Source: a virus. Taken from it: a DNA stretch of 64,000 bases. The notes under the pieces are model-generated. The model did no database searches and had not been told where the DNA came from. It worked only from the letters and a program-made list of their open reading frames with translations. The DNA is taken from IMG/VR virus record IMGVR_UViG_3300018080_000100, one strand, 5' to 3'. Both the position numbers and the translations under genes were made by a program. Of the stretch, positions 3,026-30,545 are shown one piece after another; the stretch's first letter is position 1; each line of letters begins with the position of its first letter.

Positions 3026-5035
3026 TTATACAGCAACTCGTCTGCCTTTCGAAACTCCTCCTGGCTTCCATCCGGGCATGCCTGTATGCAGTTCATTCAG
3101 CCCTCTGCGGCCCACGCTCGACGTGTTCACGTGTGACTTACGGTGGTTCCACGCCGCGGTGCGGTAACCTTGCTGCCACAGCTGCAGTCCGACCGTGTAA
3201 TCGCCTCCGTTGTGCCCGATATCGGGGTCTGGGATCATAGCTTCGCGCATAGCGGCTGTTTCGAGCGCCCAGAAGCCACCTGCAGCGAAGAAAACGTGCT
3301 GCGCATTGGGCGCTTCGGTCTTCTGCTTCGTCTGGAGCTGCCGGCCACGCCACCACGGGCGCTTCTTGGCCCATGCCAATTGCGCTGGATTCATGGTCCA
3401 GAAGCGCAAATCGCCGACCATGCGCGCCTTTTTCACGTATTCGTTGATGATTTTGGACGCCAGATGCGGATACCAGTCCGCATCGCGGTTCGCGATCGAG
3501 TCATCGTCGAACCAGACGATCCATTTCGTGTCGATCGGGTTGTTTTCATCCCAGAACAGCTGGCGCATGGCCGGATATTTCTTCCGGTTGTCGTCGTTCA
3601 GGATCAGCGTGTGCAGTTGACCCTCGTCGCGGAGGTCTTCGAGCCACTTTCGCGTCGACATGCACACCTGATTCGTTGCAATACGGATGTCGCGGCGCGC
3701 TGGAGACGTCGTTTTGAGGATACTGCCCAGGCAAGCGCGGTGCATATCCGGATAATCGCCGTACATCAGGATGCAAATGGTCATTTTGCCGCCAATTATC
3801 ACGTGATCGAGCACATTATCGACCGCGCGCTTCCCTCTGCCCTTTTTCGCCTTCCGTTCGCCCTGAAAAGCGTGCAAGAGCGCCGGCACATCGGCTTTCG
3901 GCGGGATTGTGACCGTCTTGGCGGCCTTTTTGCTGATGATTTGGTCCGCTGGCGCGAACAAATCGACCGAATTGGGCACCAAGACGCGCTTCGGGGGCGC
4001 TTCTGCCTTCGGAAGCACCAATTCCTTCGGTTTTCCGATCGGCGGCAGCGTGCCATCGTCGTAATAGCTCATGACAGCCTCCAAAACGTGATCGACAGTG
4101 ACCATTTTCAAGCATTCTGGGATCTTTTGGCCGTAGCCATCGTCGACAGGGCGCTTGCAGTATGATCTATGCTTGTCCTTCTGCGTATGCAGGATCTTGT
4201 TTTTCCAGCAGCCGCGGTCCTTACAGCAGTCCAACAGGCCCTGCGTGTGCAAATATCGATGCGGAACCTTCACTGATTGCGAATACGGCCCGAAATTCTC
4301 CACGCCAGCCACGTTGACGTATGCTTCCCACCACCAATGCTCTCGTCCGCCGGCCAGAACCACGCAAGGCTTATCGAAAGCGGCCGCCATGTGCATGAAA
4401 CAGGTGACCGGGCACACGATTCCCTCTGCATGGTAGACCAGCCACAGCACGTCGCGAAGGTTCGTCTTACCGACGAGGTCCATGGCGCCGTCGACAGGCG
4501 GGTTGACGTTGCCCTTATGGTTAGCGCCACAACGGACCATATGCAGGTTTTGCGCGCGCATTGCGTCAGCAAGCTGCTGCCAGCGCTGCGCGGACCACGC
4601 TTTCGTCGTGAAGTCCGACTTGTTGCCCGGTACGAGCAGCCAATAGCGCCCAGACAGCGGCGGATTCTTGTAATGCCACTCATCGAGGTGCAGATCGCCC
4701 TTCGGATGCAGGCACGGCACCGGCTGTCCGCACCGTTTCTGGAAGTCTCGGTGGAACGCCGTGACGAAATGCAGCTTCTTCCTGTTCGCCTCGGAGATGT
4801 ACTTGCCGTAGTTCAGATGAACCTGCTGCATATCACGCGGTACGTGGCCATGGTTGCCCGCGATATGCGGATTGTGGTTCCACAGCGTCTTACAATGTGT
4901 CGCCACGTGTATCTCGTACTTGCCGGGGTAGGCCAGCGAGATATCGCGCACGAGACCGGTCAGGCAAGTGATGTCGCCGGGCGCGCAGCCGTGGGTGATG
5001 ACGATAGGTTGGGCTGATTTTGATCTCATGATCAA
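3026..5035 (-). CDS. two-domain glycosyltransferase (N-terminal GT9 heptosyltransferase-like, C-terminal GT2/GT-A-like)
   Basis: The N-terminal half looks like ADP-heptose:LPS heptosyltransferase, with a C-terminal G-rich nucleotide-sugar pocket (VVLAGGREHWWWEAY). The C-terminal half has GT-A hallmarks (ILMYGDY...WIVWFDDDS, DxD-like DDD). Annotated start is TTG; ATG at 5029 (MRSKS) lies inside the palindromic element. Confidence 0.6.
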   Translation of the reverse strand: MIMRSKSAQPIVITHGCAPGDITCLTGLVRDISLAYPGKYEIHVATHCKTLWNHNPHIAGNHGHVPRDMQQVHLNYGKYISEANRKKLHFVTAFHRDFQKRCGQPVPCLHPKGDLHLDEWHYKNPPLSGRYWLLVPGNKSDFTTKAWSAQRWQQLADAMRAQNLHMVRCGANHKGNVNPPVDGAMDLVGKTNLRDVLWLVYHAEGIVCPVTCFMHMAAAFDKPCVVLAGGREHWWWEAYVNVAGVENFGPYSQSVKVPHRYLHTQGLLDCCKDRGCWKNKILHTQKDKHRSYCKRPVDDGYGQKIPECLKMVTVDHVLEAVMSYYDDGTLPPIGKPKELVLPKAEAPPKRVLVPNSVDLFAPADQIISKKAAKTVTIPPKADVPALLHAFQGERKAKKGRGKRAVDNVLDHVIIGGKMTICILMYGDYPDMHRACLGSILKTTSPARRDIRIATNQVCMSTRKWLEDLRDEGQLHTLILNDDNRKKYPAMRQLFWDENNPIDTKWIVWFDDDSIANRDADWYPHLASKIINEYVKKARMVGDLRFWTMNPAQLAWAKKRPWWRGRQLQTKQKTEAPNAQHVFFAAGGFWALETAAMREAMIPDPDIGHNGGDYTVGLQLWQQGYRTAAWNHRKSHVNTSSVGRRGLNELHTGMPGWKPGGVSKGRRVAV

Positions 5036-8288: not shown

Positions 8289-8672
8289 CTACTCCTTGCG
8301 GACTTTCAGAAATTCCTTTAGCTGCCCGACGGACATACTTCCAACATGATACTTGTATTGCCACTTGCCGTCGACTTTCCAGAACAGAAACAGCTGAGGT
8401 ATCGAGCGCGTCTTTGCCAACTTGGCAGCCTTTGCTGCTGCTTTGGGCTGCTTGTCCACGTCAAATCGGATGTAGCGAACATGATTCAGTCCACCTGCCT
8501 TGCGCACCGCGGGGATGACCTCGTTCTTCATCTCCCTGCACGGCGGACAGCCCTCAGAACCCATTACGATGAATCGCGGCTTCTCTTCCTGCGGCGGATT
8601 GGCGACAGCCATCGCGATGTTGACTGCGTACAGCAAGCCGACGATCGCCAGCAGGTTGTAGATGGTGCGCAT
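8289..8672 (-). CDS. thioredoxin-fold thiol-disulfide oxidoreductase with N-terminal signal/anchor
   Basis: Hydrophobic N-terminus LLAIVGLLYAVNIAMAVA, then a CPPC active-site motif in thioredoxin-like context. Confidence 0.7.
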   Translation of the reverse strand: MRTIYNLLAIVGLLYAVNIAMAVANPPQEEKPRFIVMGSEGCPPCREMKNEVIPAVRKAGGLNHVRYIRFDVDKQPKAAAKAAKLAKTRSIPQLFLFWKVDGKWQYKYHVGSMSVGQLKEFLKVRKE

Positions 8673-9688: not shown

Positions 9689-9874
9689 GCTTATGTCACT
9701 TCTGCATTATTGTCACGGTGGGGGTAAAAATAGCATTAACTGTCCGGATTCGTCGCAAACCCTACGCCTATAGGGGTTTGCGTTAGTCACGATGCGCAAT
9801 TACTGTTTAGTAACGGGTTTGGCCGGGGTCCTTATGTCAGTCCTGGGTCATGCAAAAAGCGCGGTGACTCAACA
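9689..9874. promoter_or_regulatory. AT-richer 186-bp intergenic region with hairpin and GTGAC repeats
   Basis: Hairpin GCAAACCCTA-cgcc-TAGGGGTTTGC. GTGAC(A/T)A appears three times on the coding strand. A -10-like CAATAAT lies about 21 nt before the 9688 start. Confidence 0.3.
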
Positions 9875-11374
9875 TTATGCCGATACGATGTGCACATTGC
9901 GGAGTGCGATGAACGCCGCCATGGTCTTGTCGTCAACGGTGTCTCCCTGGATCAGCACGTTAGAGACAGCTGTGGAGTCTGGCAGCGCCCGCGCGAGCGC
10001 GAACTGCTTCGGCTGTACGCCGATCGGCAGCCCGTTTATGTACGCGACGGCCGCGCGCTTGAACTCGTCTTCGTCTACCTCGGCGGTCACGTTGATCCGC
10101 ACGGTGACCAAGGCTGGCTTCACAGCTTTGATCAGCACATCGAGGCCAGGTTGACGGACTGCCGGCTTATCGACTGCAGTCTGAATCGTATCGACGTCAG
10201 GCATGACAAGCACGGTCACGATGAAGGCCTTCTTGTCGCCGACACTGAGGCCGAGCGTCTCGATCTCCTCTTTGAACGTGATTGTGGCTTCCTGGTAAGC
10301 GCTGTACAGCCCTTCGTCTACCGTCTGGACGTCCGGCACAGCGCCTGCGGTATTCATGCTGCGGACATCGTCCAGGATCGTGCAGCCGTCGGCGGTGTGT
10401 GGCAGTCCAGGCGCACGGATGTCACGGACCAGATAGAAACCAGGCGCGTCGTCGCGCGCCAGCGTGACTTCCCAGGTAGCCTCCGTTGGCGTCTTGGACA
10501 GCAACGTGGCGTTCTTGGTGATGCCGCGGCTCTTCGGGAAAGCTCGCGTGCGCACGTAGACGTCCAGCTTGCCGCCGCCAGACACGGTACCACCGCGCCG
10601 GTCTCGTAGCATTTCAGGATCACTCGCACCGATTACGGCCACATCGAGCACGTTGAATGTCAGGCTTTTGATTAGCGCCTTGACGCTCTCAGGACTGCCG
10701 AAGCCAGGCATCGCGGCGCCGGTCTGCATCTGCTGCACTAGCTCCTCGTTCGACTGCGCTACGTTGCCGCCAGCGAAGTCTTCCGTGGCGTACGCCAGCA
10801 GAACACCCGGCGGGCTCGGTACTATGGTGAGCTTGTCGAACTGCGCCAGTACGGCGTTCTCGTGGATCTCGGCGGCCATGACAGGTACTTGCACGGCGAA
10901 GTTGCCGTTGTCCAGCTCCTCCGAGCGCACATCGTATGTGCCGAGGCTGCTAGTATCAGGCGCTTTCACGCTGACCGGCCGTGTGGCGTAGAACAGTTGC
11001 CCGTTGGCGCGGAACTTCGTGCTCGTGCCAAAGTTGATGCCACTGGCTCTGTCCATTACGACGGTGACGCTACCGGCCGCCTTGGTGGACACACGCCGGG
11101 TGATGCGATAGTTGGACGCCAACGCGTCGACAGCAGTCGGAACTGCTGCGTCGGGCTCTTGGGCCAGCTCCAGCGCCGACATAGACTTGCGCAGCCGTTC
11201 GATCGCCTCCATGCTTGCGCCCTGCAAGATGGCGTGCAGTTCTGTCACCAAGTCACCGAGGACACCCCTGCGGGCATTCAAGTCCGGACACTGCTCTTCG
11301 ACCATCTGGGCGATGATGGCGTAAGCCGCATCGACGCGGTCGTCGTCAATCTCATTCAGTTCGGGCCAGTACAT
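9875..11374 (-). CDS. baseplate J-like (gp47/gp6-like) wedge protein
   Basis: 499-aa ORF. Its size and its position next to the gp25-like gene fit a baseplate J-like protein. RBS AGGAG. No exact motif match is claimed. Confidence 0.4.
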   Translation of the reverse strand: MYWPELNEIDDDRVDAAYAIIAQMVEEQCPDLNARRGVLGDLVTELHAILQGASMEAIERLRKSMSALELAQEPDAAVPTAVDALASNYRITRRVSTKAAGSVTVVMDRASGINFGTSTKFRANGQLFYATRPVSVKAPDTSSLGTYDVRSEELDNGNFAVQVPVMAAEIHENAVLAQFDKLTIVPSPPGVLLAYATEDFAGGNVAQSNEELVQQMQTGAAMPGFGSPESVKALIKSLTFNVLDVAVIGASDPEMLRDRRGGTVSGGGKLDVYVRTRAFPKSRGITKNATLLSKTPTEATWEVTLARDDAPGFYLVRDIRAPGLPHTADGCTILDDVRSMNTAGAVPDVQTVDEGLYSAYQEATITFKEEIETLGLSVGDKKAFIVTVLVMPDVDTIQTAVDKPAVRQPGLDVLIKAVKPALVTVRINVTAEVDEDEFKRAAVAYINGLPIGVQPKQFALARALPDSTAVSNVLIQGDTVDDKTMAAFIALRNVHIVSA

Positions 11375-11383
11375 CAGTAACTC

Positions 11384-11809
11384 CTATGTTGGGAGCGGCA
11401 GAATGAACTGCATCGATTCAGCCTCTGTTGTCAGCGTGATCACGAGCTGCATGACGCCTGGTTGGACGATGATGTTGTTCAGCTGTAGGCGTTTGAAGCG
11501 CTGCTCAGGCGGGTCGTCCTCTGTCTCTTCCTCCTGCATTGCCGCAGCGATATGGCGCGCGGCCGATTGGAAGTGCGCCGCCACGTCGGACTCGGTGAAC
11601 ATGTGGCCCTGCTGCCACAGCGTCATGAATGGGCACGCACGCGGCACCTCGCGGCCGAACGTGTAGCGCTGACTGCCGGTCTCGGTCAGCAGCACGCACA
11701 ATACGCGTTGCAGCACGTTGTGGATGCCGGAGGAAACACCGCCGTCATCAAACTGCGAGAGGACGAAACCCTCCTCGTCGACGCTCCAGGCTGTTATGTC
11801 TTTGCTCAT
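11384..11809 (-). CDS. gp25/GPW-like baseplate wedge protein
   Basis: About 140 aa from MSKDITAWSVDEEG. Segment SGIHNVLQRVLCVLLTETGSQRYTFGREVPRACPFMTL resembles the gp25 family. ATGA overlap with the upstream gene. Confidence 0.45.
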   Translation of the reverse strand: MSKDITAWSVDEEGFVLSQFDDGGVSSGIHNVLQRVLCVLLTETGSQRYTFGREVPRACPFMTLWQQGHMFTESDVAAHFQSAARHIAAAMQEEETEDDPPEQRFKRLQLNNIIVQPGVMQLVITLTTEAESMQFILPLPT

Positions 11810-12240
11810 GTCGTCAACATCTCCTGGATGAATGCCTCCACAGAGCCCTTGTGTACGCCGTTGGCGGCGTCTCCGTGCGCCTTGCGCCGCCCCGACAGCA
11901 ACATGCACGCGCGTGTGGGTGTGCGGTGACGCTCGCGGAACGAGCGTTCCATCATGGCCATGTAGCCGATCTCGATACTGGTACCCGCTGCGATCCTACT
12001 CTTGTTCTCACCCGCGCCTGTGAACTCGTCGATGTAATCCTGGTTCACGTCCGTACGGTCGAACGGGTCGCCCATATCGGGGATGTCCGTAGGGTCGAAC
12101 GTCCAGCCGGGTGTCTTCCCACTTGGGATCATCCACGGCCGCTGCACGGCGTTACCTTCCAGGTACGATCCGATCGACAATGAGTCGGCCGATACGTCGT
12201 CCATCAGGCTCGTAAATTGTGCGTCAACGGCAAGGGTCAT
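11806..12240 (-). CDS. hypothetical baseplate-module protein
   Basis: 144-aa ORF translationally coupled to its neighbours. Confidence 0.4.
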   Translation of the reverse strand: MTLAVDAQFTSLMDDVSADSLSIGSYLEGNAVQRPWMIPSGKTPGWTFDPTDIPDMGDPFDRTDVNQDYIDEFTGAGENKSRIAAGTSIEIGYMAMMERSFRERHRTPTRACMLLSGRRKAHGDAANGVHKGSVEAFIQEMLTT

Positions 12241-12980
12241 TAGAGCATCTCCAGGGTATCGCGCTTATCGAGCTTCTGCTGGATTTGCGCCATCCTGTGG
12301 CTGACAGCAGCCGGGCTGATCTTCAGCTGCGCCGCCACCTGGCTGGGCTTGGTTTGCGGGTGCCCGTGCATGCCCAGCACCCGCTCCATGATGAACTGGT
12401 TGGTCTCGTCTAGGTCATCATAAACTAGTTCGAGCCATACGTCAGGGCGTTCTTGCAGCGAACGTACCCGAGGGTCGTAACCTCCGCTGCCTTCGTCGCC
12501 CGGCCGGGTGATCGTGCTCTCGGCCAGGGGCCTGCCGCTACCACGGATATACTGCAGCCGCTTGAGCGACAGCCCGGTGAAGTCCGACAGCTCCTGGTCC
12601 GACGGCGGCCGGCCCAGCTTGTCTTCCAGCTCGTTGACAGCACGCTCGGAGTGCATCTGGTCCAGCGCGACCTGCTCTGGCACGCGGATGATCTGGCGAT
12701 GACTGGACGCCGTACGCCGCAAGCGCTGCAGCCGGGACATCATGTGCGACTTGAGCGGACCACGGGCTGGATCGTACGAGTGCAGGGCTTCCGCGGCCAT
12801 ACGCTTAGCCTGGGACCTGATCGTCACACTCTTGGCCGACGGGCCGGCGTACGCGCGTACGGCCATGCTGATAACCGGATCGAGCGCCTTGAGCATCTGA
12901 CCTGTGTTTGCGCGGGACGGATCGGTAGCCCAAGCCTTGTATGGCTCCTGAAAATCGGGCTCTAGCAGGTTTTTCGACAT
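12240..12980 (-). CDS. sigma-70 family RNA polymerase sigma factor (regions 2, 3 and 4 present; FliA/group 3-4 size)
   Basis: Start ATG at 12980 with AGGAGGT RBS. YDPARG, RQIIRVPEQV (region 2.4/3), LGRPPSDQELSDFTGLSLKRLQYI (region 3) and NQFIMERVLGMHGHPQTKPSQVAAQLKISPAAVSHRMAQIQQKL (region 4 HTH) align with E. coli sigma70. Confidence 0.75.
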   Translation of the reverse strand: MSKNLLEPDFQEPYKAWATDPSRANTGQMLKALDPVISMAVRAYAGPSAKSVTIRSQAKRMAAEALHSYDPARGPLKSHMMSRLQRLRRTASSHRQIIRVPEQVALDQMHSERAVNELEDKLGRPPSDQELSDFTGLSLKRLQYIRGSGRPLAESTITRPGDEGSGGYDPRVRSLQERPDVWLELVYDDLDETNQFIMERVLGMHGHPQTKPSQVAAQLKISPAAVSHRMAQIQQKLDKRDTLEML

Positions 12981-12988
12981 GATACCTC

Positions 12989-14689
12989 CTACGGCGCCGG
13001 CGCCGGTGGCGCGCCGCCACACGAGTCGCTCAGTGTTGGACACGTCTGACCCGCAGTCAAGTTGTGCGAACCTATCCACGGCGTGGTATACAGCGGATGC
13101 GCCGTTACGGTGTAGTCGTCGCTCGCATGCTCGGTAGCCGTGCGGATATGCGACATGCGGAACGCGGTGTAGCACTTCTGATGCTGCGCATCGAAGAAGT
13201 GGCTGACGCGTACCACCGAGCCGTACCGCTTCTCTCCGGCGATCGGCGGCTGGTTGCTGCCCTCAGTGCCTTCGAACGAGATCGTGGAGCCTGGCGCGAT
13301 GTCAAAGCGGACCGGACCCACAATATCGCCCCAGCGGTTCTTGAGTATCTCGTTGACGTAGAAGGCGTGGGCCAACTCGTCCAGGATAGTCTTCTGATCG
13401 TCTTTGGAGTCTACCGGGTCTGGTAGAACGGCGTTCGGCGTACCGACGCCTGGGTGGTTATGGGCGTTGCCGCGTACGGTATTGGCGCCGGCGATGCCTA
13501 CGGAGTCGGCTGAGAACCCGGATGGTTGCACGTACTCAGACAGGTACGACGGCGCGCGTTTCAGGATAACGATGCCGTCCTCGCGTCCGACATACATACC
13601 GCCGATCGTATCCTCGACCGTGTCGTCCGGGCGCATGTTGCCGCCAGATCGCGAGCCGTAGCCAGCGAAGAACCCCACAGCCCGGGTTGCGCGCGGCAGG
13701 AAGGCGTTCATGTCCTGCTGCGACATGTCACGTGTGAGGATCGACGCGTTGGCGCCTCCCGGATTCCACTCAGCACGCAGGCCCGGAATGAACGGCACGA
13801 TCGCGGCATGCGTTGGGTATGGGATGAGCTTGAAGAAGAACTTGGCTGACAGCTCCCCGATAATCTTGTCCCAGAACGTGGTATGCGCCATCGCGTTGAG
13901 CGTATTGGACCGGTTGGCCGGCGTCAGCGAGCTGACCGCGATGTCGTTGGCGATCGCCATTGCTGCCACGTCGGCGTCGACGCCGCCAGGCACCTTGAAA
14001 TCCAGTACCTCGCCGCTGATATTGATCAACTTGAGCGCGGCAAGCGCCTCGTGGTTCTTGCTGTCGTTCTCTGCGTCGCCGTCAGGGAACAACTGAAACT
14101 GCGCTGAGCCGATGCGCGGCAAGCAGCACAGTTCCTCGAACCATGGCATGATGGCGTCACCCCACAGGTCGCTCTGGATATTGGCTGCCGTGACGACGGA
14201 CTGCGCAGTCGTCCGGCCCAGCCAGTGCGTCAGCGCGCCGCCCGACGCGTCGAAGTCGATCGCGCTGTTGAACGTGAAGTGCGAAGGGTTCTGCGGGTGC
14301 ATCATGGCGTTGAGCGTCGACGAGAAGCTGAGAGCTGACAGCCAATGAGTCATCTCGAGCGTCATGGCGTAGCCGTCGTAGGTTCGCCGATAACCGATGC
14401 CTGTCACCCAGCCACAGAAGATTCTGTACAAACCTGCCGGCCAGATACCAGGCCCGCCAGCCTTGAGTGTCGATGTGACGTAGACTTGAACCTGCAGCTG
14501 CAACGGAGAATTCAACCCGCCACCATGGGCGGTCGACGCTACGAGCGTATCGGCCCTGTAGCCGACCGGCAAAACCGCCGTGGCAGTCGGGATCTTGTTC
14601 ATTTCGTACGAACAGCCGAATTGCACCAGCTCGTAGAACGTGCCTCCGATCTGGGCGACTAGTTCGAATTCGATCGCAACGTAACTCAT
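12989..14689 (-). CDS. baseplate hub/central spike-like structural protein
   Basis: 566 aa from MSYVAIEFELVAQIGGTFYEL, assigned by position downstream of the tape-measure-like gene. No exact motif. ATGA-coupled to the upstream gene. Confidence 0.4.
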   Translation of the reverse strand: MSYVAIEFELVAQIGGTFYELVQFGCSYEMNKIPTATAVLPVGYRADTLVASTAHGGGLNSPLQLQVQVYVTSTLKAGGPGIWPAGLYRIFCGWVTGIGYRRTYDGYAMTLEMTHWLSALSFSSTLNAMMHPQNPSHFTFNSAIDFDASGGALTHWLGRTTAQSVVTAANIQSDLWGDAIMPWFEELCCLPRIGSAQFQLFPDGDAENDSKNHEALAALKLINISGEVLDFKVPGGVDADVAAMAIANDIAVSSLTPANRSNTLNAMAHTTFWDKIIGELSAKFFFKLIPYPTHAAIVPFIPGLRAEWNPGGANASILTRDMSQQDMNAFLPRATRAVGFFAGYGSRSGGNMRPDDTVEDTIGGMYVGREDGIVILKRAPSYLSEYVQPSGFSADSVGIAGANTVRGNAHNHPGVGTPNAVLPDPVDSKDDQKTILDELAHAFYVNEILKNRWGDIVGPVRFDIAPGSTISFEGTEGSNQPPIAGEKRYGSVVRVSHFFDAQHQKCYTAFRMSHIRTATEHASDDYTVTAHPLYTTPWIGSHNLTAGQTCPTLSDSCGGAPPAPAP

Positions 14690-15153
14690 GTGCGTGCGCG
14701 CTCCGTGCAGTCTGCGACGGCCAGCATCAGCCCGCCTAGCTTGTAGGGCAGCTGGTCGTGATTCTTCCACAATTCGAGGAAGGTCTTATTTGGCTCCTGC
14801 TCGCCGTCGCCGAACAGCTCAATATCGTCGTCCACAGTCAAAGTCGTGATTAGCGCTGGCAGCAGTTCTGGAAGGCCGCCATCGGCGGTGTTACCCAGGT
14901 GCGCAGCGTCAAACGGCAGGTACGTGATCCGTGGATCGTATGCCAGCACGTACTCCTCGAGTTCGGTGGCGTGCAGCATCTGCATCACTTGCTGCAGCCG
15001 CAGGCCTGTTACGGGCGGGTTACCGAACACGATGTCGCGCACTTTCTGGACGGCCGCAGGGATTGCCTGCGGGACAAAGTCCTGCGGCACCCACTCGTCG
15101 TCGGAGCCGGTGGCCGCCATGTTGTGCAGTAGGGTTCTTACGTGATTTATCAT
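14686..15153 (-). CDS. hypothetical tail protein
   Basis: Internal Met start at 15153 gives ATGA coupling with the 15150 stop. Confidence 0.35.
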   Translation of the reverse strand: MINHVRTLLHNMAATGSDDEWVPQDFVPQAIPAAVQKVRDIVFGNPPVTGLRLQQVMQMLHATELEEYVLAYDPRITYLPFDAAHLGNTADGGLPELLPALITTLTVDDDIELFGDGEQEPNKTFLELWKNHDQLPYKLGGLMLAVADCTERART

Positions 15154-15620
15154 GGTGGCACGATGGTCTTGAATATGAGCTGGAACTTGGCCAGCCGGGA
15201 CTTGGGGTTCATGTAGTCGAACTTGCCGCCGACTAGGAACGCGTCTGCGCTGTACCCGGCGAACACCAACGTAACCGGCGTACCCGTGATCGAGATAGCG
15301 TAGGTGTTGTAGTAGTCCATCGCCGCAGTCAGCCCGTGGCCCGACAGGAAGCATTCCATGCCGCCGATGCCGCTCACGACGACGTCGCCCATCTTCTCGC
15401 CGAAGACGTAGACGTAGGTGTAGTTTCGCAGCGTGAGCAAGAACTGGTAGTTGCCCTGCGTGCGCGCTGACACGCCTGACACCACAGCATGACCTGGTGA
15501 CGACGGGATAGCCGGGTTCAGTGTGAATGTCAACGGAACCGCCGTGCCGGTAGCCACCACGTTCATGATGCCGGTCAGCTCGCCGCTTTTGATGGCATTG
15601 GTCCCGAATATGTAGGCCAT
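15150..15620 (-). CDS. hypothetical tail protein
   Basis: 156-aa ORF abutting the tape-measure-like gene. Confidence 0.4.
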   Translation of the reverse strand: MAYIFGTNAIKSGELTGIMNVVATGTAVPLTFTLNPAIPSSPGHAVVSGVSARTQGNYQFLLTLRNYTYVYVFGEKMGDVVVSGIGGMECFLSGHGLTAAMDYYNTYAISITGTPVTLVFAGYSADAFLVGGKFDYMNPKSRLAKFQLIFKTIVPP

Positions 15621-17683
15621 TATGCGATTCCTCCTGTATCGCCAGGTTGCTCGCTCACACCGTTCATCATGCCTGCTATCGTCTGCGAGTCCCCGTCACC
15701 AAACGAGAAGGACAGCGCATCCGTGTCAACGGCTGTAGCGCCGGCACGCTCTCCTGGCAGGTCTTGTGCGGCATCCGTGCCCGATTCCTGCTCGTCTACC
15801 TGTCTTGCTGCGGCCCTGTCATTCGATACCTCCGTGGCACCCGCAGCAAACGCTGCGGCCTCCTCCGGCGTTTTGACGCCCGATTTGACGGCATGGGCAG
15901 CGCGTCCGACGAAGTTACGCTGCCCGTCCGCGGCATGCTCGATCTCGTCGTCCACACGTCCCTGGGCCTTGTCTTGCTCCTTATGCGTCTCCTCCAGGGC
16001 ACGCTTGCTGTGCATTGCAGCAGCATGGCCTGCGCCACCCCTATAGTTTAAGCTACGAGCCGCTCTTGAGGCAGCGCCAAGTGCCAGTTCTGCCGTGGCC
16101 TCGGCGTTTCTGCCGCCTAAACCCGCCTCTTCAAGGCGCTCAGCGATGGCCTCGATCACTTCCTCGCGGGACGCGCCGGCCATTTCGCGCACGGTGCTGG
16201 TCACGATCTCGCCGGCCTTCCACATCCGCCGGGCTGACGTCCGTTTGCCACGCTGGCGCAACACGCCCGACATCTGGTTAGCCACGGTCCTTCGCATGAG
16301 CGGTGCGATGTCGGCGTCCCACTGGGTTTCGCGGACAGCGCCGGCCACCTTGTCGCCGTACAGGTCTTTATTCTCGTCGCGCTGATGGATGATCCCGGTG
16401 GCCACGGTCATGTCGACGCCGCTCTTCTCCAGCGTCTTGCGGAAGGCCGCAGCGTCGTAGAGGTTGAACTCGCCCTCCTCTTTCAGCTTGATATACGCCT
16501 TGTGCGCTGGCGAGCCGTCTCGGAGCATGCCCTTGTCGCCCATCCGGAGTAGCGCTGCTGCGTTGTTGGCAGTCTCGCTGCGTCCGGCCTGCGCCATTAG
16601 CTGAGTATCCTGCTGCATCATCTCGTTAGCGCTGATACCGCCAGCCGCCTGGATGAACCCAGCGCCCTGGCTCTTGGCGTATGCGCCGAAAGCCATACCG
16701 TGCTGACCGGCCATGACGCCCGACATCGCGTCGCCGCCCTTGGCTACCGACGCGGCGCCGCCGAACTGCTGCAGGCCCGCAGCCTCGCCGTAGCTGATGT
16801 CGGCCTGACGGGACAGCTGCTTGAACATGCGTGTCTGCTGCTCCAGCTGTTCATTGTTGACGCCACGGGAGAACCCACCCATGTTGAGCTGATCGAGCGT
16901 CTGCGCCATCTGGTCGGCATTCATGGCAGAGTAACCGCCGCCGAGGTCGCGGATAGCGCTCATCGGCTTGGCGAGCCCAGCCTGCCAGTCAGTGAAGTCT
17001 TTGCGCCCAGCTTGGGTCTGGTAGTCGATGTTGCCGGGACCAAGTCCACGCTGCATAGCTGGGGCTACGAACGACGACAGCTGGCCCAGGCCGAAGCCGC
17101 GGGTGGCAGCTAGGCTGCCCTGCGGATGGCTGTACAGATTCTGCTGTGCCGCGCCAGTCAGTTGAGTCGCCGCGCCCGTCAGCTGCCCCGGCGTCATACC
17201 TGTGCCAGGCTGCCCAGGAGTCTGCATCTGGTTACGGAACAGCTCGGAGTAGTTGCCGGCCGCCTGGTTCGCCCCGAGGCCGAGCGCGTCCATCGTACCG
17301 CCGGGCATGAAATTACCAACCAGCGGCGTGATAGCGGCTACCGCCGCGCCGAACTTGTCGCTCTGCAACAGTTCGGACATCTTGTTGCCTTCTTCGGAAG
17401 ACAACAGCCCCATGCCGACCAGCCCACCACCCTGCGACCCAGCGTAGCCGTGAATCAGCTCCTGCAGGCTTTGCTGCGCAGCCGCCATGCCGATACCGCT
17501 GACGGCGCCCAGCTGGCCCTGCTCGAACTCGCGGGCGCGCTGGGTGTCCTGCAGGTTCTGCGTAGGCCAGAACTGTCCCAGTGTCATGCCAGACGGAACC
17601 ATCCCCTGCCCGAACGTCTGTAGAAACATGTTCAGGAGAGGATTGCTCGAAAAGGCTCCACTAGGGTGCGAAGCGCCTGACAT
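15620..17683 (-). CDS. tape-measure-like or internal virion protein (Gly/Gln/Met/Ala-rich)
   Basis: About 690 aa of low-complexity G/Q/A/M-rich sequence. Start ATG at 17683. Lies between chaperone-sized ORFs and the hub-like gene. Confidence 0.5.
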   Translation of the reverse strand: MSGASHPSGAFSSNPLLNMFLQTFGQGMVPSGMTLGQFWPTQNLQDTQRAREFEQGQLGAVSGIGMAAAQQSLQELIHGYAGSQGGGLVGMGLLSSEEGNKMSELLQSDKFGAAVAAITPLVGNFMPGGTMDALGLGANQAAGNYSELFRNQMQTPGQPGTGMTPGQLTGAATQLTGAAQQNLYSHPQGSLAATRGFGLGQLSSFVAPAMQRGLGPGNIDYQTQAGRKDFTDWQAGLAKPMSAIRDLGGGYSAMNADQMAQTLDQLNMGGFSRGVNNEQLEQQTRMFKQLSRQADISYGEAAGLQQFGGAASVAKGGDAMSGVMAGQHGMAFGAYAKSQGAGFIQAAGGISANEMMQQDTQLMAQAGRSETANNAAALLRMGDKGMLRDGSPAHKAYIKLKEEGEFNLYDAAAFRKTLEKSGVDMTVATGIIHQRDENKDLYGDKVAGAVRETQWDADIAPLMRRTVANQMSGVLRQRGKRTSARRMWKAGEIVTSTVREMAGASREEVIEAIAERLEEAGLGGRNAEATAELALGAASRAARSLNYRGGAGHAAAMHSKRALEETHKEQDKAQGRVDDEIEHAADGQRNFVGRAAHAVKSGVKTPEEAAAFAAGATEVSNDRAAARQVDEQESGTDAAQDLPGERAGATAVDTDALSFSFGDGDSQTIAGMMNGVSEQPGDTGGIA

Positions 17684-18152
17684 AACTCTTTCCCCATTTC
17701 GCGAGCTGTTTACGGATGGCTTCCTTGCCCTTCTCACTTCGAGGATCGCTGAAACGCTTCACATAGGTATTACGCATCTCTTCGTTCGCTATCAGCTGCG
17801 CCTGGCGTCCGGTCGGCACCCACGGCAGTAGCTCGCTGAGAAGCTGGTTGCGCAAAGACTCGGTCTGCTTATGGTGCAGATTGAACGCCATCTGGTCTGC
17901 GCCATAGTCTAGTAGCGCCAGATTGAACTGGTACTGATGCTCCCGCGCCTGAATACGCAGCTTCCGCGCGACATGCTCGACAACGAGGTTGGCTTTACGC
18001 CACCATCTTATGTCAAGTATATCACCGCCCAGGTCCAACAGCCCCTCGCAATGTGCGTGGAGCAGCAAGCATGTTAGGCGGTTCTGTCGAAAAAATCGGG
18101 GTCTTCCGCCTTCGCTTCCATGTACTGCAGCACCTGGTTGAACTGCACCCAC
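17661..18152 (-). CDS. hypothetical protein (start uncertain; may be only 17661..17891)
   Basis: The long form overlaps the upstream gene by 78 nt. An internal Met at 17891 gives a 76-aa product. Confidence 0.3.
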   Translation of the reverse strand: MGAVQPGAAVHGSEGGRPRFFRQNRLTCLLLHAHCEGLLDLGGDILDIRWWRKANLVVEHVARKLRIQAREHQYQFNLALLDYGADQMAFNLHHKQTESLRNQLLSELLPWVPTGRQAQLIANEEMRNTYVKRFSDPRSEKGKEAIRKQLAKWGKSYVRRFAP

Positions 18153-19282: not shown

Positions 19283-22096
19283 TTAGCTTGCGGGATTGTG
19301 ATAGTAGTTGCCATCGATCTCAACGAGATTCGGTGCATCTAGTGTAACAGTTGCCTCATAGGTAGCGCCACGGTCTTCTGCCGTGCCGGCTGATACGTCG
19401 TACAGCTTATTGTCCACGGTCCGGTACGCTGTGCCCGCTGTCAGGCGATCCTTACCCGGGAATGGATACGTATCTTCGCTGGAGTCGTTGCTTTCGACTG
19501 CGTTCTCGGACCATTTTGGTACTGCGTCGCCGTTCTCACGGACCATCTGCTGCCAGCGCGCCTCGTACATGGTGAAGTATTGGGCCTTCATGTCGGCGGT
19601 CAGCCGCATGTCAAACCACGCTGATTTCACGACGTCGATGTTGCCGGGGCGCCCGGTAGCGTACCACATCGTGTTGAGGTCGATGCCCCAGCGCGTGGTA
19701 CTCCACGTACGCAGTGTGGCTTCATAGGTATGCCCGCTGTTGATAGCAGTACAAGCAGCACTGGTGCCGGCCTTGGCGACCATGCCGCCCGCCGTGGAGT
19801 AATAATGCCCAGAGCACGAGACCACGTCGTTGCGGACCAGGTGCGAACCATAGTTCAACAGGTCACCGTCGATGAAGACGTCGTTGCACAGTGTTGCACC
19901 GTCCTCGGTGAAGAAGTTGACCTGCCGGGTCGTCGCGTCGTCTGGGAACGCATGCATCACTGCGCACTGGACCCAGTGCTTAACGAACTCGGACCGGGTG
20001 ATGATGTCGCCCTTGCCCTTGGTATCGAGGACGATGTCGCCCTCTTTCGGCTGTGACGGCGGCGTCGTGCTGACACCGTCCACCTTACCGAGGGCGTCGC
20101 CCATCTTCGTCATCAGGTAGACGTTTCGTCCCCAGCCGACGATCTCCGAGTTCTTGGCCTTCATCACGATGCCGGTATGATAAGCGTGCTCGCCAACAAC
20201 GTCCCAGGAATATAGCGAGTGGCCCTGTGTGCCGTTGACCGGGCTTTCGGATATATCTGAGCGCGACTCGATGAACACGCCGTACGCGCCGCCGCCGTTC
20301 GCGCCGAGCATGTTCAAGTTCTGCTCGGCTTTGAGCCGTACGTCCGCCTCACTGGCTGAGATGTCCACACTGTTGTGTGCGCGCAGACAGATGTCGCGGC
20401 CACCCCAGGCGATGACGTTACGGCCAGGAGCTAGGAACACATCGCCGGGGCACTCCAGGAAGATGCAGCCGCCGGCCATGCGGATCTCAGAGCCCCAGCC
20501 GTCGCCGATACAGACACCGCCCTCGTCGGTGATGGTGAAGTATGCAGTGTTCTTGTAGACCGTAGCGCTGGTCTCTGGTGTACGATGGTCGTACTGGATA
20601 GTTTCGGTGCCCGGGACGTCCAAATACCACTGGCTAGTGCTGTCGAGGTCGGCCCAGGTCGGAATATCCTGGTTGGAGTCGACGTGCGCGTAATCGCCCT
20701 CTTCTGGCAGGTAGAAGTCGTTCTCGTGGTAATGGAACGGGTGCGAGCCTTCCCAGTTGAACAGGTGCGCATGCAGGTCGGGCACCGAGGAGGCCATGAA
20801 CAGATGGCGCTCGTCCGCAAGCACACTGCCGCTGACGCCCGGCGTAGGCTGTACTTTGTGCGATGACCCGCCGCCGTAGTAGCCAGAGGCCATGTAGTTC
20901 GTGGAATTGTCGCCATCTTCGGCTGTGACGATCTGGTTGCGCTTTGGTACCGGGATGATCGGGCGCTTGGCCAGCGTGAATCCCAATGCAGAGCGCACGC
21001 CCCAGTGGCCGGACAGCGCAATCTGCTGTTCGTGCAATCCAACAGGCTCGTAGTACGTGTCGCTGTACAGCAACTCGTTCTCTGAGCTACTGTAGTCAGG
21101 CGCACACAGCAGCTTCTTCTGGCCTTGTCCGAGGTAACCGGCGTACGTGCGGAATCGGTGGAACGGCTGCAGATCGTCGTTGGTCGGTTCGATCCGGCCG
21201 TACCACGGATATGTGTTCTGAATGTTGTCCGCGGTAAGCTCAGCACTGGAGCCAGAATACGGGCTCTCCAGCATACCCTGGTGCTCCCACGGGTAGACTG
21301 AGATGCCGTGGTAGTAGACGGTCTCGCCTTCGTCGTCGTAGACTTCGCGCTCGGTAGGCCCGGCCCACTCCTGGAACTGTTGGCCGGCAACACGGCATAG
21401 GCCGTCCCAGTAGAAGACCCAGATGCCCGTGTACTCGTCGGCGCGCATGAACGACATGTACGAGTCCAGATGCAGCATCACGCCCAGCTCGGACGCTCTG
21501 TTGAACTCGCCGATCTCCATGCTGTCGATAGGCGTACGGCCGGACCAGTCGGTGATACCGCCGTTGAGATCAACGGAGCCGCTATAGGCAGTGCCGCCTA
21601 GGCTGAACGGATACTGCGGGCCGGATTCGACTTTCAGCCCGGTATTGGAGCCCTGGCTGATGATGTCGCCGTAGCACTTCGTGGGATCCCACATGTACAC
21701 GGGCTCGACACCGATGATGGTGCCGGATGTGCCGTTCGGAAGCCGCATGAAGCGCACATGCGTGCCTGGTACGAGCGTATCAGCATCGTACGCGCCGATC
21801 GGTGTGACGGACGCGCTCATACACTTCGAGCAGTCTATCGCCATATTGCCGCCGTCCGGCAACACTTTGTAGCAGCGAGCCAGCGGGATGCCGTCGATGA
21901 TGATGCCGAACTCTACGCGGCCGTCGGTAGCGAGGTCATGTTGATGACTTTGCCCCGCGCCCATGCTATCTTCGGCGGGACGCTGATCCCCGGCGTGTCC
22001 GGGTGAACTACGCGTATTCCAATCGTTCGCACGCGCGAGTCTGCCGAGATTCTCAGCAGCGAACGCGGCGCCATGGGCAAACAGTTGTCCAAACAT
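19283..22096 (-). CDS. large tail fibre/tailspike-like protein (possible beta-helix)
   Basis: 937-aa ORF. Repetitive G/N/V/I-rich stretches (NVIAWGGRDICLRAHNSVDISASEADVRLKAEQNLNMLGANGGGAYGVFIESRSDI) suggest a parallel beta-helix. Confidence 0.45.
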   Translation of the reverse strand: MFGQLFAHGAAFAAENLGRLARANDWNTRSSPGHAGDQRPAEDSMGAGQSHQHDLATDGRVEFGIIIDGIPLARCYKVLPDGGNMAIDCSKCMSASVTPIGAYDADTLVPGTHVRFMRLPNGTSGTIIGVEPVYMWDPTKCYGDIISQGSNTGLKVESGPQYPFSLGGTAYSGSVDLNGGITDWSGRTPIDSMEIGEFNRASELGVMLHLDSYMSFMRADEYTGIWVFYWDGLCRVAGQQFQEWAGPTEREVYDDEGETVYYHGISVYPWEHQGMLESPYSGSSAELTADNIQNTYPWYGRIEPTNDDLQPFHRFRTYAGYLGQGQKKLLCAPDYSSSENELLYSDTYYEPVGLHEQQIALSGHWGVRSALGFTLAKRPIIPVPKRNQIVTAEDGDNSTNYMASGYYGGGSSHKVQPTPGVSGSVLADERHLFMASSVPDLHAHLFNWEGSHPFHYHENDFYLPEEGDYAHVDSNQDIPTWADLDSTSQWYLDVPGTETIQYDHRTPETSATVYKNTAYFTITDEGGVCIGDGWGSEIRMAGGCIFLECPGDVFLAPGRNVIAWGGRDICLRAHNSVDISASEADVRLKAEQNLNMLGANGGGAYGVFIESRSDISESPVNGTQGHSLYSWDVVGEHAYHTGIVMKAKNSEIVGWGRNVYLMTKMGDALGKVDGVSTTPPSQPKEGDIVLDTKGKGDIITRSEFVKHWVQCAVMHAFPDDATTRQVNFFTEDGATLCNDVFIDGDLLNYGSHLVRNDVVSCSGHYYSTAGGMVAKAGTSAACTAINSGHTYEATLRTWSTTRWGIDLNTMWYATGRPGNIDVVKSAWFDMRLTADMKAQYFTMYEARWQQMVRENGDAVPKWSENAVESNDSSEDTYPFPGKDRLTAGTAYRTVDNKLYDVSAGTAEDRGATYEATVTLDAPNLVEIDGNYYHNPAS

Positions 22097-22149
22097 ATTC
22101 TCACCGACATGGTCCTATACCCTAGAGACAATTCTCCGAGCGGGCGACG

Positions 22150-22611
22150 TTACGAAACTGCGTATGTCATCCAGAGGAAGACGAAACCGAGTTGCTCGTT
22201 GACGACCATGTCCTGCGCTGCGACAGATCCGCCATAACTGTTGATGATCACGTGCTGCATGACCACCGTTACTGTGGCACCAGACGGACCGCCTTGGCAT
22301 TCCGCGTCCATGGCAACCGTCAACGAGTTTCCGTCGCTGTAGCAGACGTTTCCGTATTTCAGGAAGAACGCAGCTGCCAGTGCGGATGGGCCCATCACAC
22401 GCGACATGGAGCCTTGGCCCTGTGTACGGCCGCCGACCAGCACAATGTCCGTGGAGGTCACGTCGTAGAGCCGCGTGATGTTCTGGATGTAATTCCACAT
22501 CAAGTTCTGGACCAGGAGCCCAGTGTACTTCGAGTCGAACGTAATGGAGGCGCCGTCTGCGCTGAATGCGCCGCCGTACGTGACATCATTTGAAAACATG
22601 TCGGTAGCCAT
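22150..22611 (-). CDS. hypothetical structural protein
   Basis: 153-aa ORF with AGGAGGT RBS. Confidence 0.45.
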   Translation of the reverse strand: MATDMFSNDVTYGGAFSADGASITFDSKYTGLLVQNLMWNYIQNITRLYDVTSTDIVLVGGRTQGQGSMSRVMGPSALAAAFFLKYGNVCYSDGNSLTVAMDAECQGGPSGATVTVVMQHVIINSYGGSVAAQDMVVNEQLGFVFLWMTYAVS

Positions 22612-22696
22612 TAGGGCGACCTCCTATACGCAATGACTTGTTACTACTATCTATCCCCGCCACCAGCCGGACCTTCAAGCGCCGTCCGGCAGAGCG

Positions 22697-28549: not shown

Positions 28550-28585
28550 ATCAAAAAATAAGGCGGCGGCACATGCCGCCGCCTT
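28550..28585 (-). terminator. rho-independent terminator
   Basis: AAGGCGGCGGC-ACAT-GCCGCCGCCTT, a perfect 11-bp stem, followed on the minus strand by ATTTTTTGA. Confidence 0.6.
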
Positions 28586-29535: not shown

Positions 29536-30465
29536 CTACGCGAAGTCGGCGCGCGCCAGGCCGCCGGTGTGCCCGATCGAACCGCCAAGCGTCTCGTAGG
29601 CGAAGAATTCAATCATGAATGCCTCGCGCTTGATATGCATGGTGGTGTCTTCGAGCAAGTACGACTTGCCGATGAACCGAGGGTCGCCGAAGAAGTACAT
29701 CGAATCATCGGGGACCAAGTCGCGCTTGATCGTGATGATCCACTTGCAGCCCATCAGGTCGATCTCGGACCAACCGCTCTTCAGCATGTCGCCGGAGAGC
29801 GAGCCACCAGCCTCGTCGTAACCCCACTTGAGGATTTCGCGAATGGTGACGTTGTTGATCAGGACCGTGTTGACTTCGAGGTGACTCGGAGTCTTGGGCA
29901 TGATCTTCAGGGCTTCCTGCACGGTATCGCGCGAAATACCGCCCCAAACGGTCTCCCACTGGGCAACGCCAGAGGTCGGCACGATTGCATTGGCGGCGCC
30001 ACCGAGAGCTGTGTTGACGGCGGTGAGGAACTTGCTGTCCTCTTCCGCCAACATGTCCTTGATGGCATTGTCACTGAGCACTTGGCGGATGTCCATCTGC
30101 CAAGTGCGCAGCTCGTCGATGTCCTTGACGAAGCGCGGCGTCACGATCCGGTCGAACTGCACACGGTAGCGCGGGCCACGGATGTACACGTTGATCGGCA
30201 ACGTGGCGAACGGGATGGAGATGGCTGCCGGAGAACCAGGCTCCTTGTCCACAACGATGACCGGCTTGTCGGTGTCGACTTGGCGGTCAAGGTCGTCATT
30301 GCTGACCTGGACAGGCGGGATGATCTTCCGGTAGAAGCCGTCTTCACGCACACGGACACGGGTGAACTCGTTCACGGCGTCCAGAGCGTTTTTCTCCATC
30401 CCCGGCGTCTCGAGCTGGCTAAACAGCTCTTCGTTCAGGACTTGAACGCTTGAGGGGCTGGACAT
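29536..30465 (-). CDS. putative major capsid protein (HK97-fold-like)
   Basis: About 309 aa from ATG at 30465 with AAGGAGGT RBS. Its size and its position downstream of the scaffold-like and small genes fit a major capsid protein. A hairpin follows the gene. Its N-terminal segment is duplicated at 62.5 kb. Confidence 0.5.
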   Translation of the reverse strand: MSSPSSVQVLNEELFSQLETPGMEKNALDAVNEFTRVRVREDGFYRKIIPPVQVSNDDLDRQVDTDKPVIVVDKEPGSPAAISIPFATLPINVYIRGPRYRVQFDRIVTPRFVKDIDELRTWQMDIRQVLSDNAIKDMLAEEDSKFLTAVNTALGGAANAIVPTSGVAQWETVWGGISRDTVQEALKIMPKTPSHLEVNTVLINNVTIREILKWGYDEAGGSLSGDMLKSGWSEIDLMGCKWIITIKRDLVPDDSMYFFGDPRFIGKSYLLEDTTMHIKREAFMIEFFAYETLGGSIGHTGGLARADFA

Positions 30466-30545
30466 CTTCAACCTCCTTGATTGGTTTTCACTTCCTATCC
30501 GTGGAAGCGATCATTATCGGTTTATGCGACGCCTTCCTAACTGCC

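Follow-up and report, generated by a model that had tools for sequence, protein, structure and literature searches.

A divergent sigma-70-family factor encoded among the baseplate genes of phages with a bacterial-type RNA polymerase

What does a transcription initiation factor do among the genes that build a phage baseplate? This question is raised by a stretch of 64,000 nucleotides of viral DNA (IMG/VR virus record IMGVR_UViG_3300018080_000100; the whole stretch is referred to as the window), in which a minus-strand gene at 12240-12980 encodes a sigma-70-family protein of 246 residues inside a chain of tail and baseplate genes. The original prediction, made from the letters of the window, proposed two roles for this protein: to form a self-contained holoenzyme with an RNA polymerase of the phage itself, or to redirect the host RNA polymerase for late transcription. 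Here, we report that the protein is most likely the cognate sigma factor of the phage polymerase, and its gene a core gene fixed in the lineage of RNA polymerase-encoding (mReC) or Arash-like phages. The closest cultured relative is the Salmonella phage Arash (181 kb), the Gp10 protein of which is 25% identical to the window sigma protein (tblastn E 2e-8) and has been annotated as "RNA polymerase sigma factor RpoS" (Yousefi et al. 2023, PMC10585845). The existence of the family is therefore not new, since it is already annotated as sigma in Arash and in JGI gene calls. The mechanism of Gp10 is left unassigned in the Arash paper, which only lists the protein as detected in virions (PMC10585845). 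Orthologues also occur, unannotated, in the Vibrio phages D69, D148 and D181 (in D181 at 10,995-11,684). The window itself has no DNA similarity to known phages.

Sigma-70 identity and family

The gene and the segments of its product, as delimited by an AlphaFold2 (AF2) model together with profile alignments, are the following:

12240-12980, minus strand: sigma-70-family gene, 246 residues, with its ATG at 12980 and its TAA stop at 12240-12242
12693-12959, minus strand: sigma2 domain, residues ~8-96
12540-12677, minus strand: sigma3 domain, residues 102-147
12447-12533, minus strand: disordered linker of the 3.2 type, residues 150-178
12252-12440, minus strand: sigma4 domain with its helix-turn-helix (HTH), residues 181-243

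The original prediction held that regions 2, 3 and 4 of a sigma factor are recognisable in this protein. For region 3 this holds by Pfam, which reports Sigma70_r3 (PF04539) at residues 113-143 slightly above its cutoff (25.9 bits vs 25.3, E 1e-5) and gives stronger matches in the orthologues of Arash (35.7 bits) and D181 (33.2 bits). Regions 2 and 4 are recognised by profile and structure comparisons, while the Pfam models of both return no match to the window protein. A family profile built from 39 homologues and compared with the PDB sequences hits sigma factors only, the best being SigB (E 1.9e-7). Its alignment to RpoS covers query residues 18-229, collinear from region 2 through region 4, and the sigma2 domain is supported by its collinearity with RpoS residues 92-314 and SigB residues 144-332. 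Region 4 of SigB and SigA is also covered by the profile alignments, and phmmer aligns residues 24-192 with RpoS residues 98-266. The AF2 model (mean predicted local distance difference test score, pLDDT, of 80.9) comprises helices at residues 8-96, 102-147 and 181-243 and a disordered stretch at residues 150-178; it has the fold of a sigma factor and not that of a baseplate protein, all of its top 50 Foldseek matches in the PDB being sigma-factor entries. Weak Pfam HTH matches (residues 208-238) and a match to PHROG 351, a sigma factor family (residues 180-239), are found in the C-terminal domain. Sigma profiles, both Sigma70_r3 and that of the family, thus match where a lack of hits had been named as the outcome that would speak against a sigma factor.

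NCBIfam analysis reports weak matches to RpoD, SigB/F/G and FliA/WhiG, all well under cutoff. The curated group-3 subfamilies (SigB/F/G, FliA/WhiG) score 16.7-19 bits vs cutoffs of 189.6-234, and the subfamily cutoffs as a whole span 190-385 bits, of which the window protein reaches 19. The protein is a divergent member of the sigma-70 family, formed of sigma2, sigma3, a 3.2-type linker and sigma4, and devoid of region 1.1. Its domain plan is group-3-like, yet it lies outside every curated group-3 subfamily. With the group-3 sigma factors of the FliA/sigma-28, SigF and SigB type it shares its size, the sigma2-sigma3-sigma4 plan and the lack of region 1.1; unlike them, it is phage-encoded, and its presumed partner is a phage polymerase with fused beta and beta' subunits.

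Conservation within the family is strongest in the sigma elements, namely a 2.2-like core-binding helix, regions 3.0/3.1, the 3.2 linker and the 4.2 recognition helix. Across the 39 homologues, the motif ISPAAVSHRM of the 4.2 helix is kept, as are the motifs RPxAESTI and GGYDP of the region 3.2 linker. In region 2.3, the RpoS segment TYATwwIRQ faces SHMMS--RLQ in the window protein: His79, a residue invariant across the family, takes the place of the tyrosine, and the W-dyad is gone, so that the canonical residues melting the -10 element (Y430, W433 and W434, E. coli numbering) are missing. These aromatic residues are a trait of groups 1 and 2 and are not needed for membership of the sigma-70 family; FliA is likewise not known to carry the W-dyad. 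Since the segments outside the melting motif are well kept, the sequences argue for a working initiation factor, the promoter specificity of which would be conserved across the lineage.

The family is large. Its 70 homologues retrieved from 5.8 billion proteins are nearly all of ~246 residues, and a profile search of 1.84 billion representatives reports 719 clusters at E<=1e-30 and 1500 at E<=1e-10, clusters being defined at 50% identity. IMG/VR provides 49 sigma loci, the longest of their contigs measuring 226 kb. A search that reaches close relatives only found none for the sigma protein among 185,579 species-representative genomes of bacteria and archaea. The long members of the family (P0103, P0108, P0135 and P0159) carry N-terminal extensions ahead of the sigma part. 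Those of P0103, P0108 and P0135 are of low complexity, and in P0159 (518 residues) a 2H-phosphoesterase-like domain with two H-x-S/T motifs is fused before sigma. A fusion between hub and sigma was considered for these long members and rejected, none of the extensions being hub-like.

The phage RNA polymerase as probable partner

The phage RNA polymerase with which the sigma protein had been predicted to associate does exist in the window, as two subunits:

44227-48597, minus strand: large subunit of 1456 residues, beta fused to the N-terminal part of beta'
41303-43192, minus strand: C-terminal beta' subunit (Rpb1 domain 5), orthologue of Arash Gp216

The fused subunit contains Rpb2 domains 3 and 6 and Rpb1 domains 1 and 2 and ends just past the catalytic GADFDGD motif; the polymerase matches reach E 1e-56 for Rpb2_6, 3e-23 for Rpb1_2 and 2e-20 for Rpb1_5. 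Arash Gp206 shares 33% identity with it along 97% of the subunit. A comparison with E. coli beta' by alignment indicates that the clamp helices, which are the docking site of sigma2, are kept, with equivalents of E295 and A302 present, and that the Zn-binding domain of beta' is deleted. Among the window proteins scanned, none was recognised as a homologue of alpha or omega. Judged by sequence, the window phage is a tailed phage with bacterial-type beta and beta', which is what defines the mReC or Arash-like phages. The paper that defined the RNA polymerase-encoding phages (Weinheimer & Aylward 2020; PMC7481178) does not mention any sigma factor. The fused beta-beta' is present lineage-wide, with at least 260 matching stretches in IMG/VR, and it is found in every long-enough sigma-bearing genome checked (the window, Arash, D69/D148/D181 and two IMG/VR contigs).

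According to reviews, phage multisubunit polymerases are devoid of sigma homologues and phage sigma factors capture the host polymerase (PMC7824862, PMC13282480). The sigma protein might redirect the core of the host RNA polymerase, either late in infection or on delivery, with the phage polymerase working without it. Such redirection is the documented role of phage sigma-70 relatives, and the characterised multisubunit polymerases of phiKZ and AR9 use no sigma-70 homologue (PMC7824862, PMC13282480). The weak similarity to the cellular RpoS, SigB and FliA would moreover reflect a core-binding region of the cellular type. Against this stands, first of all, the fused beta-beta' that accompanies the sigma gene in all genomes checked. 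The fused polymerase also resembles the bacterial enzyme far more closely than the phiKZ type does, and its clamp helices retain the equivalents of E295 and A302. The family is kept in phages of apparently very different hosts (Salmonella and Vibrio for the isolates; the window has a GC content of 60%), which suits co-evolution with a phage-borne partner better, and the sigma gene is placed in the last temporal class. Lastly, an Srd-type anti-sigma factor is annotated in D181, which points to a shut-off of the host holoenzyme. We consider the redirection of the host polymerase improbable, and the evidence, being that of sequences, favours a holoenzyme with the phage polymerase. Functional parallels are phiKZ gp68 and AR9 gp226, which are dedicated initiation subunits of phage multisubunit polymerases, of the non-virion type; they have no detectable sigma-70 similarity, whereas the window protein is a recognisable member of this family.

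Placement, virion content and probable timing of expression

The sigma gene lies within the following series, given from upstream to downstream:

29536-30471, minus strand: major capsid protein, 30% identical to Arash Gp226 (E 2e-39)
15620-17737, minus strand: Gln/Gly/Ala-rich protein of ~660-705 residues, putative tape measure by its position, from which the chain to sigma starts
12989-14689, minus strand: protein of 566 residues at the baseplate-hub position, following the tape-measure-like gene and two small genes
12985-12990, minus strand: ribosome-binding site AGGAGG of the sigma gene, 4 nt ahead of its ATG
11806-12240, minus strand: protein of 144 residues, overlapping the sigma stop by 1 nt
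11384-11809, minus strand: putative gp25/gpW-like baseplate wedge protein of 141 residues (weak, collinear profile support)
9875-11374, minus strand: gp6/J-like baseplate wedge protein of 499 residues (PHROG 6, E 1.5e-8)
9754-9782, minus strand: hairpin with a 9-bp stem (CGCAAACCC...GGGTTTGCG), in the 186-nt gap past the wedge gene

The AGGAGG of the sigma gene overlaps the TAG stop (12989-12991) of the 566-residue open reading frame (ORF), from which the sigma gene is separated by 8 nt (12981-12988), and the sigma stop has one base in common with the next ATG at 12240 (TAATG); the sequence thus bears out the tight packing on both sides that had been predicted. ATGA overlaps couple 11806-12240 to 11384-11809, and also 14686-15120 to 12989-14689. 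The GC content at third codon positions is 0.78 in the sigma gene, similar to that of the neighbour genes, and its composition is therefore native, with no sign of recent import. A consensus scan of the 8-24 kb region detects no promoter or terminator signals above chance, and hence none that would interrupt the chain. The sigma gene probably belongs to a tightly packed, polycistronic chain, and the hairpin at 9754-9782 may be the end or a processing site of this transcription unit.

The neighbours had been described as a hub-like gene on one side and gp25/J-like wedge genes on the other. The gp6/J-like label is supported by the PHROG 6 match; the protein is the orthologue of Arash Gp13, itself detected in virions. 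The gp25-like protein is weakly identified, through the baseplate wedge protein 9euf_L (E 0.013), Afp9 (E 0.9) and P2 gpW (hhalign E 0.009, 63 columns including the characteristic ...Q..L.T..GS....G...). The hub-like label of 12989-14689 is putative and comes from gene position, the product returning no Pfam, PHROG, PDB-profile or P2 gpD match. As for the 144-residue protein, its AF2 model is all-alpha-helical with low confidence (pLDDT 64); anti-sigma factor and spike were both considered for it and gained no support, there being no fold, PDB, Pfam or P2 gpV match.

At a larger scale, the polymerase, capsid, tail, sigma and baseplate genes constitute one minus-strand block, which fills almost the whole window and extends 10 kb past each end. 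The block is collinear with Arash for the polymerase, the major capsid protein, a tail protein, the sigma factor Gp10 and the wedges Gp13 and Gp14, and the polymerase genes belong to this late block, collinear with Arash Gp206 to Gp226. In Arash, Gp10 is encoded between the structural genes gp4-gp8 and gp12-gp17, and in D69, D148 and D181 the sigma gene is located ahead of the wedge genes. The upstream neighbours in Arash and D181 differ from those of the window: where the window has the 566-residue protein, Arash has an extra small gene, gp9, and a large "cell wall hydrolase".

Fifty-three related loci were scanned with iterated profiles of each window protein, the identity of their sigma proteins ranging from 73% to ~27%. 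In all 53, sigma lies inside the tail/baseplate module. The hub-position gene is found in 48 of them, with sigma directly behind it in ~48, and the 144-residue protein adjoins sigma in 48/53. The usual order upstream is a large tail protein, a 398-residue protein, the tape-measure-like protein, a 156-residue protein, a 144-residue protein and the hub-position protein; past sigma, most of the 53 loci have the 144-residue, gp25-like, gp6-like and a 333-residue protein. The gaps flanking sigma are of -4 to 17 nt in the gene calls of three distant contigs, and the placement of sigma in the tail-baseplate chain is kept down to ~25% protein identity. The location had been called atypical; this is true for sigma genes in general, but within the lineage it is the rule. 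Packaging of the sigma protein in the virion, an explanation absent from the original prediction, best accounts for its gene being fixed in the tail/baseplate module. It is very doubtful that the fixed hub-to-wedge position also reflects a loading of sigma through the tail or baseplate and not through the head.

Virion content can be assessed in Arash. Gp10 and the polymerase subunits are among the proteins detected in sucrose-gradient-purified particles, Gp10 with 24 unique peptides and 467 spectra, and beta and beta' among the most detected proteins; for these the authors suggested either a function in the opening phase of infection or carry-over (PMC10585845). We recomputed peptide densities from the table of this paper and GenBank protein lengths. 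Per 100 residues, unique peptides amount to 10.3 for the sigma factor Gp10, 8.4 for beta and 6.6 for the C-terminal beta', to be compared with 9.8 for the major capsid protein, 5.5 for the portal and 8.1 for the "helicase" Gp217, and with 1.4 for ribonucleotide reductase, 0.6 for DNA ligase and 0.2 for primase. The three proteins sigma, beta and beta' yield 2.0, 2.3 and 2.0 spectra per residue, respectively. In Arash, the sigma factor, beta and beta' thus behave as abundant particle components present in similar amounts, unlike the contaminating enzymes. Gp217, a "DNA helicase" encoded directly past the C-terminal beta' gene (positions 21261-22679 of the Arash piece L005), was detected with 38 unique peptides and 1148 spectra and may be a polymerase-associated factor. 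Arash also encodes a second sigma factor, Gp196 (345 residues; L005 656-1693, plus strand), which is unrelated to Gp10, has a Sigma70_r2 match (E 6e-10) and the canonical YAGWW, is encoded away from the structural block and is missing from the virion proteins listed. Close homologues of Gp196 are present on IMG/VR contigs of 172-183 kb.

Abundance in virions, together with a strictly structural and translationally coupled neighbourhood and the loss of the canonical melting residues, would also suit an exapted sigma fold, now serving in the structure or assembly of the baseplate or tail and no longer in transcription. This is highly improbable: conservation peaks in the functional elements of sigma factors, no baseplate role is obvious, and the polymerase subunits, the genes of which lie outside the baseplate cluster, are equally abundant in virions.

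Two strand-specific promoter classes, which we have not seen described in the Arash paper (PMC10585845), were identified in the Arash genome, assembled from fetched pieces for this motif search. Class A reads TCAATAA-N15-TGGTATAAGTAAAGTGTAA, also written TCAATAA-N15-cTGGTATAAGTAAaGTGTAA; its 39 sites at 12 bits or more all belong to the strand that carries the early and middle genes, the late strand having none, and GGTATAAG occurs 30 times on one strand vs once on the other. A related motif in D181 is also strand-biased (15 vs 2). Class B (CTAAAATA or TTAAACTA) is located 25-35 nt upstream of the start codons of late operons, among them those holding the polymerase and sigma genes, and TTAAACTA is confined to the late-operon strand, where it is found six times. 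Divergent class A and class B promoters overlap back-to-back ahead of gp212 and gp216. The -10-like hexamer of class A has a T at position -7 in at most one of ~40 sites and a G in 80%, and the class B hexamers TAAAAT and TAAACT retain the canonical A at -11 and T at -7. Since class A almost always lacks the T at -7 and the Gp10 family lacks the Y..WW residues, which Gp196 possesses as YAGWW, a tentative pairing would assign class A to the Gp10-type sigma and class B to Gp196.

In temporal cascades, the factor for each stage is made one stage earlier. The sigma protein would be made with the last class and therefore serve the next infection, which would require its packaging; in Arash, the polymerase genes are behind late-type promoters, and delivery by the virion would solve the problem of their first transcription. 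We propose that sigma would be transcribed and translated late, with the baseplate proteins, and dock on the clamp helices that beta' of the phage polymerase has retained, and that the resulting holoenzyme (beta-beta', C-terminal beta' and sigma) would be packaged in the virion. After injection, this holoenzyme would begin early transcription without the host polymerase, and a second, non-virion sigma factor (Gp196 in Arash) would later turn the same polymerase to late promoters. Two sigma factors on one polymerase would in this way replace the two-polymerase strategy of phiKZ. Given the Arash proteomics, this scheme is the most economical one. By analogy with Arash, we regard the chances of this whole scheme in the window phage, packaged holoenzyme followed by a second sigma for the late genes, as evenly balanced.

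Several observations weigh against the packaged holoenzyme. The presence of sigma in virions is known only for the 25%-identical Arash orthologue, and from a preparation that gave 116 of 252 proteins, including obvious cytoplasmic enzymes (PMC10585845). No second sigma factor could be identified in the window and the 10 kb flanking it on each side. The pairing of promoters with sigma factors comes from residue reasoning only. The co-occurrence of sigma and polymerase has no rate attached to it, as the short peptide patterns used sample different subsets, with two shared contigs. Gene order is generally stable in structural modules, which could account for part of the conservation of the sigma position. 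Moreover, the top plus-strand class-A-like site of Arash (9.5 bits, at 11,588) lies 10 nt upstream of gp9-gp10, and CTAAAATA is present just upstream of the D181 sigma gene; either internal site would possibly allow sigma to be expressed with some independence from the baseplate genes.

Lastly, the original prediction suggested scanning the genome for a promoter motif shared by late genes, and no motif comparable to those of Arash was found in the window or its 81-kb extension. No repeated promoter motif, and no repeated word of 10 nt or more, is present in 81 kb of the window phage genome. The sigma-70-type promoter and terminator scans of the window remain at chance, and the class-A weight matrix of Arash finds nothing on the gene strand of the window. 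The intergenic k-mers ATAGG and ACGTAAG and words resembling ribosome-binding sites were rejected, since, in the window and its close relatives, they do not combine into a motif of two blocks with a conserved context, and so was CTGTAGTA, which is over-represented in D181, as its context is not conserved. The missing motif is consistent with a late region that has few promoters.

The internal sites and the clear contaminants of the Arash proteome lend themselves to another reading, in which the protein is a late sigma of the phage polymerase with no packaged role, the expression of which would begin in the middle phase, driven by an internal promoter or by read-through, its detection in virions being carry-over of an abundant late holoenzyme. 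It would direct the polymerase to late promoters (class B in Arash), including that of its own operon, with positive feedback. Phage cascades offer support, since T4 gp55 and SPO1 gp33/34 are divergent sigma factors used for late genes. However, the internal Arash site scores below all 39 bona fide class A sites and is not conserved in D181, and the conserved sigma3 and the HTH of sigma4 argue for bipartite promoters more than for class B with its single element. In Arash virions, sigma, beta and beta' reach the same peptide density as the capsid and stand 5- to 50-fold above the metabolic enzymes. The polymerase genes are themselves behind promoters of the late class, and without delivery by the virion another enzyme would have to read them first. 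A late sigma without a packaged role therefore appears unlikely, although it deserves to be taken seriously, and we keep to the packaged holoenzyme in what follows.

Genome context and comparison with known systems

The ends of the window map to ~186 kb and ~21 kb of the 226,517-bp contig ena:ERZ27256796:k141_2629452. The window thus crosses the contig ends, and the genome is therefore circular or circularly permuted and complete at ~226.5 kb.

Several other features of this genome are worth reporting:

~1-1538, minus strand: Ro60 orthologue (TROVE and vWA_Ro60 domains, 580 residues), truncated by the start of the window and complete in the flanking piece L138 at 11444-13186
3026-5029, minus strand: two-domain glycosyltransferase (GT9 heptosyltransferase and GT2) at the end of the tail-fibre region
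8289-8672, minus strand: thioredoxin-like protein of 127 residues (Pfam Thioredoxin_2, weak) among baseplate and fibre genes
28560-28585, minus strand: terminator-like structure with an 11-bp stem (9 G-C pairs) and a T-run
54913-58965, minus strand: protein of 1350 residues with a LigD-type 3'-phosphoesterase (residues 897-982) and an ATP-dependent DNA ligase region (residues 1009-1349)
58966-59117, minus strand: two copies of TTGACGTAAGCG, ~110 nt apart, flanking the hairpin GGCCATTCC...GGAATGGCC
59743-61116, minus strand: protein of 457 residues with InPase and 2H-SAK domains, and PHROG matches to DarB-like antirestriction, minor head and virion proteins

No Rfam or ARAGORN match to a Y RNA or tRNA-like RNA is found near the Ro60 gene in the window or the flanking loci; an ORF-free gap of 1.27 kb past this gene (L138 13187-14456) could house an undescribed partner RNA. 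Beyond the window end (L137 1-5400), a glycosyltransferase cluster is accompanied by a cytidylyltransferase and two sulfotransferases, and the glycosyltransferase genes could serve the modification of virion or host-surface glycans. The terminator-like structure at 28560-28585, the strongest one in the 8-24 and 27-46 kb regions, lies within the capsid-to-tail block and is followed by a short AT-rich stretch and then the next gene. The gene of the 1350-residue ligase protein shares the block with structural genes. The TTGACGTAAGCG/hairpin region upstream of it may be a regulatory site. ACGTAAG has four copies on the minus strand of the window, each of them within a region counted as intergenic. 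The domains of the 457-residue protein are of the type known from injected "polyvalent" proteins, as would suit a phage carrying numerous enzymes in its virions.

Arash Gp10 and its D69, D148 and D181 orthologues belong to the same family as the window sigma, with the same position ahead of gp25-/gp6-like genes and the same companion, a fused polymerase. The window phage, a jumbo phage, differs by its larger genome (~226.5 kb with a GC content of 60%, vs 181 kb for Arash) and by a very divergent sigma sequence. The "Moraphages" (PMC12619734) were considered as members of this lineage and set aside, as they form a different lineage devoid of polymerase.

The transcription genes of N4 (virion RNA polymerase), phiKZ (virion RNA polymerase), the crAss-like phages (virion polymerase) and P23-45 (RNA polymerase fused to the tape measure) are likewise found among late genes. 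With these systems, the lineage shares an enzyme in the particles, as observed for the Arash homologue, and the logic of injection for an early transcription independent of the host; the same logic of packaging for the next infection explains the late expression of the N4 and phiKZ virion polymerases. None of the four includes a sigma-70-family subunit. Moreover, phages of the phiKZ type need two polymerases, whereas the window lineage would use one bacterial-like enzyme and two sigma factors, if packaging is extrapolated from Arash. That a virion-borne sigma is general in the lineage, with one polymerase and two sigma factors, unlike every characterised virion-polymerase system, seems to us a real possibility, falling a little short of an even chance.

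T4 gp55, SPO1 gp28 and gp33/34 and the sigma factors of jumbo phages devoid of polymerase are likewise phage-encoded and divergent, and switch between temporal classes. However, sigma factors of the T4/SPO1 type act on the host core, are expressed one class before their targets and are not encoded in baseplate operons. The phages that encode them possess no polymerase of their own, whereas beta-beta' is present in the window phage and every related genome checked.

A widespread lineage of phages, comprising hundreds of clusters at 50% identity, genomes of ~180-226 kb and at least four cultured members, thus pairs a bacterial-type phage polymerase with a conserved sigma factor of its own, the gene of which lies inside the baseplate operon. 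What we did not find in the papers searched is the whole pattern, a sigma factor that is lineage-wide, is most likely dedicated to the phage polymerase and, encoded in the baseplate operon, is probably delivered by the virion. The question is directly testable in Arash and the Vibrio phages. If the proposed mechanism is true, this would be the first virion-delivered sigma factor, and two polymerase polypeptides together with sigma would provide a compact model for initiation on a minimal polymerase devoid of alpha and omega. It would also offer a concrete test of whether deep-branching polymerases have kept the ancestral sigma interface.

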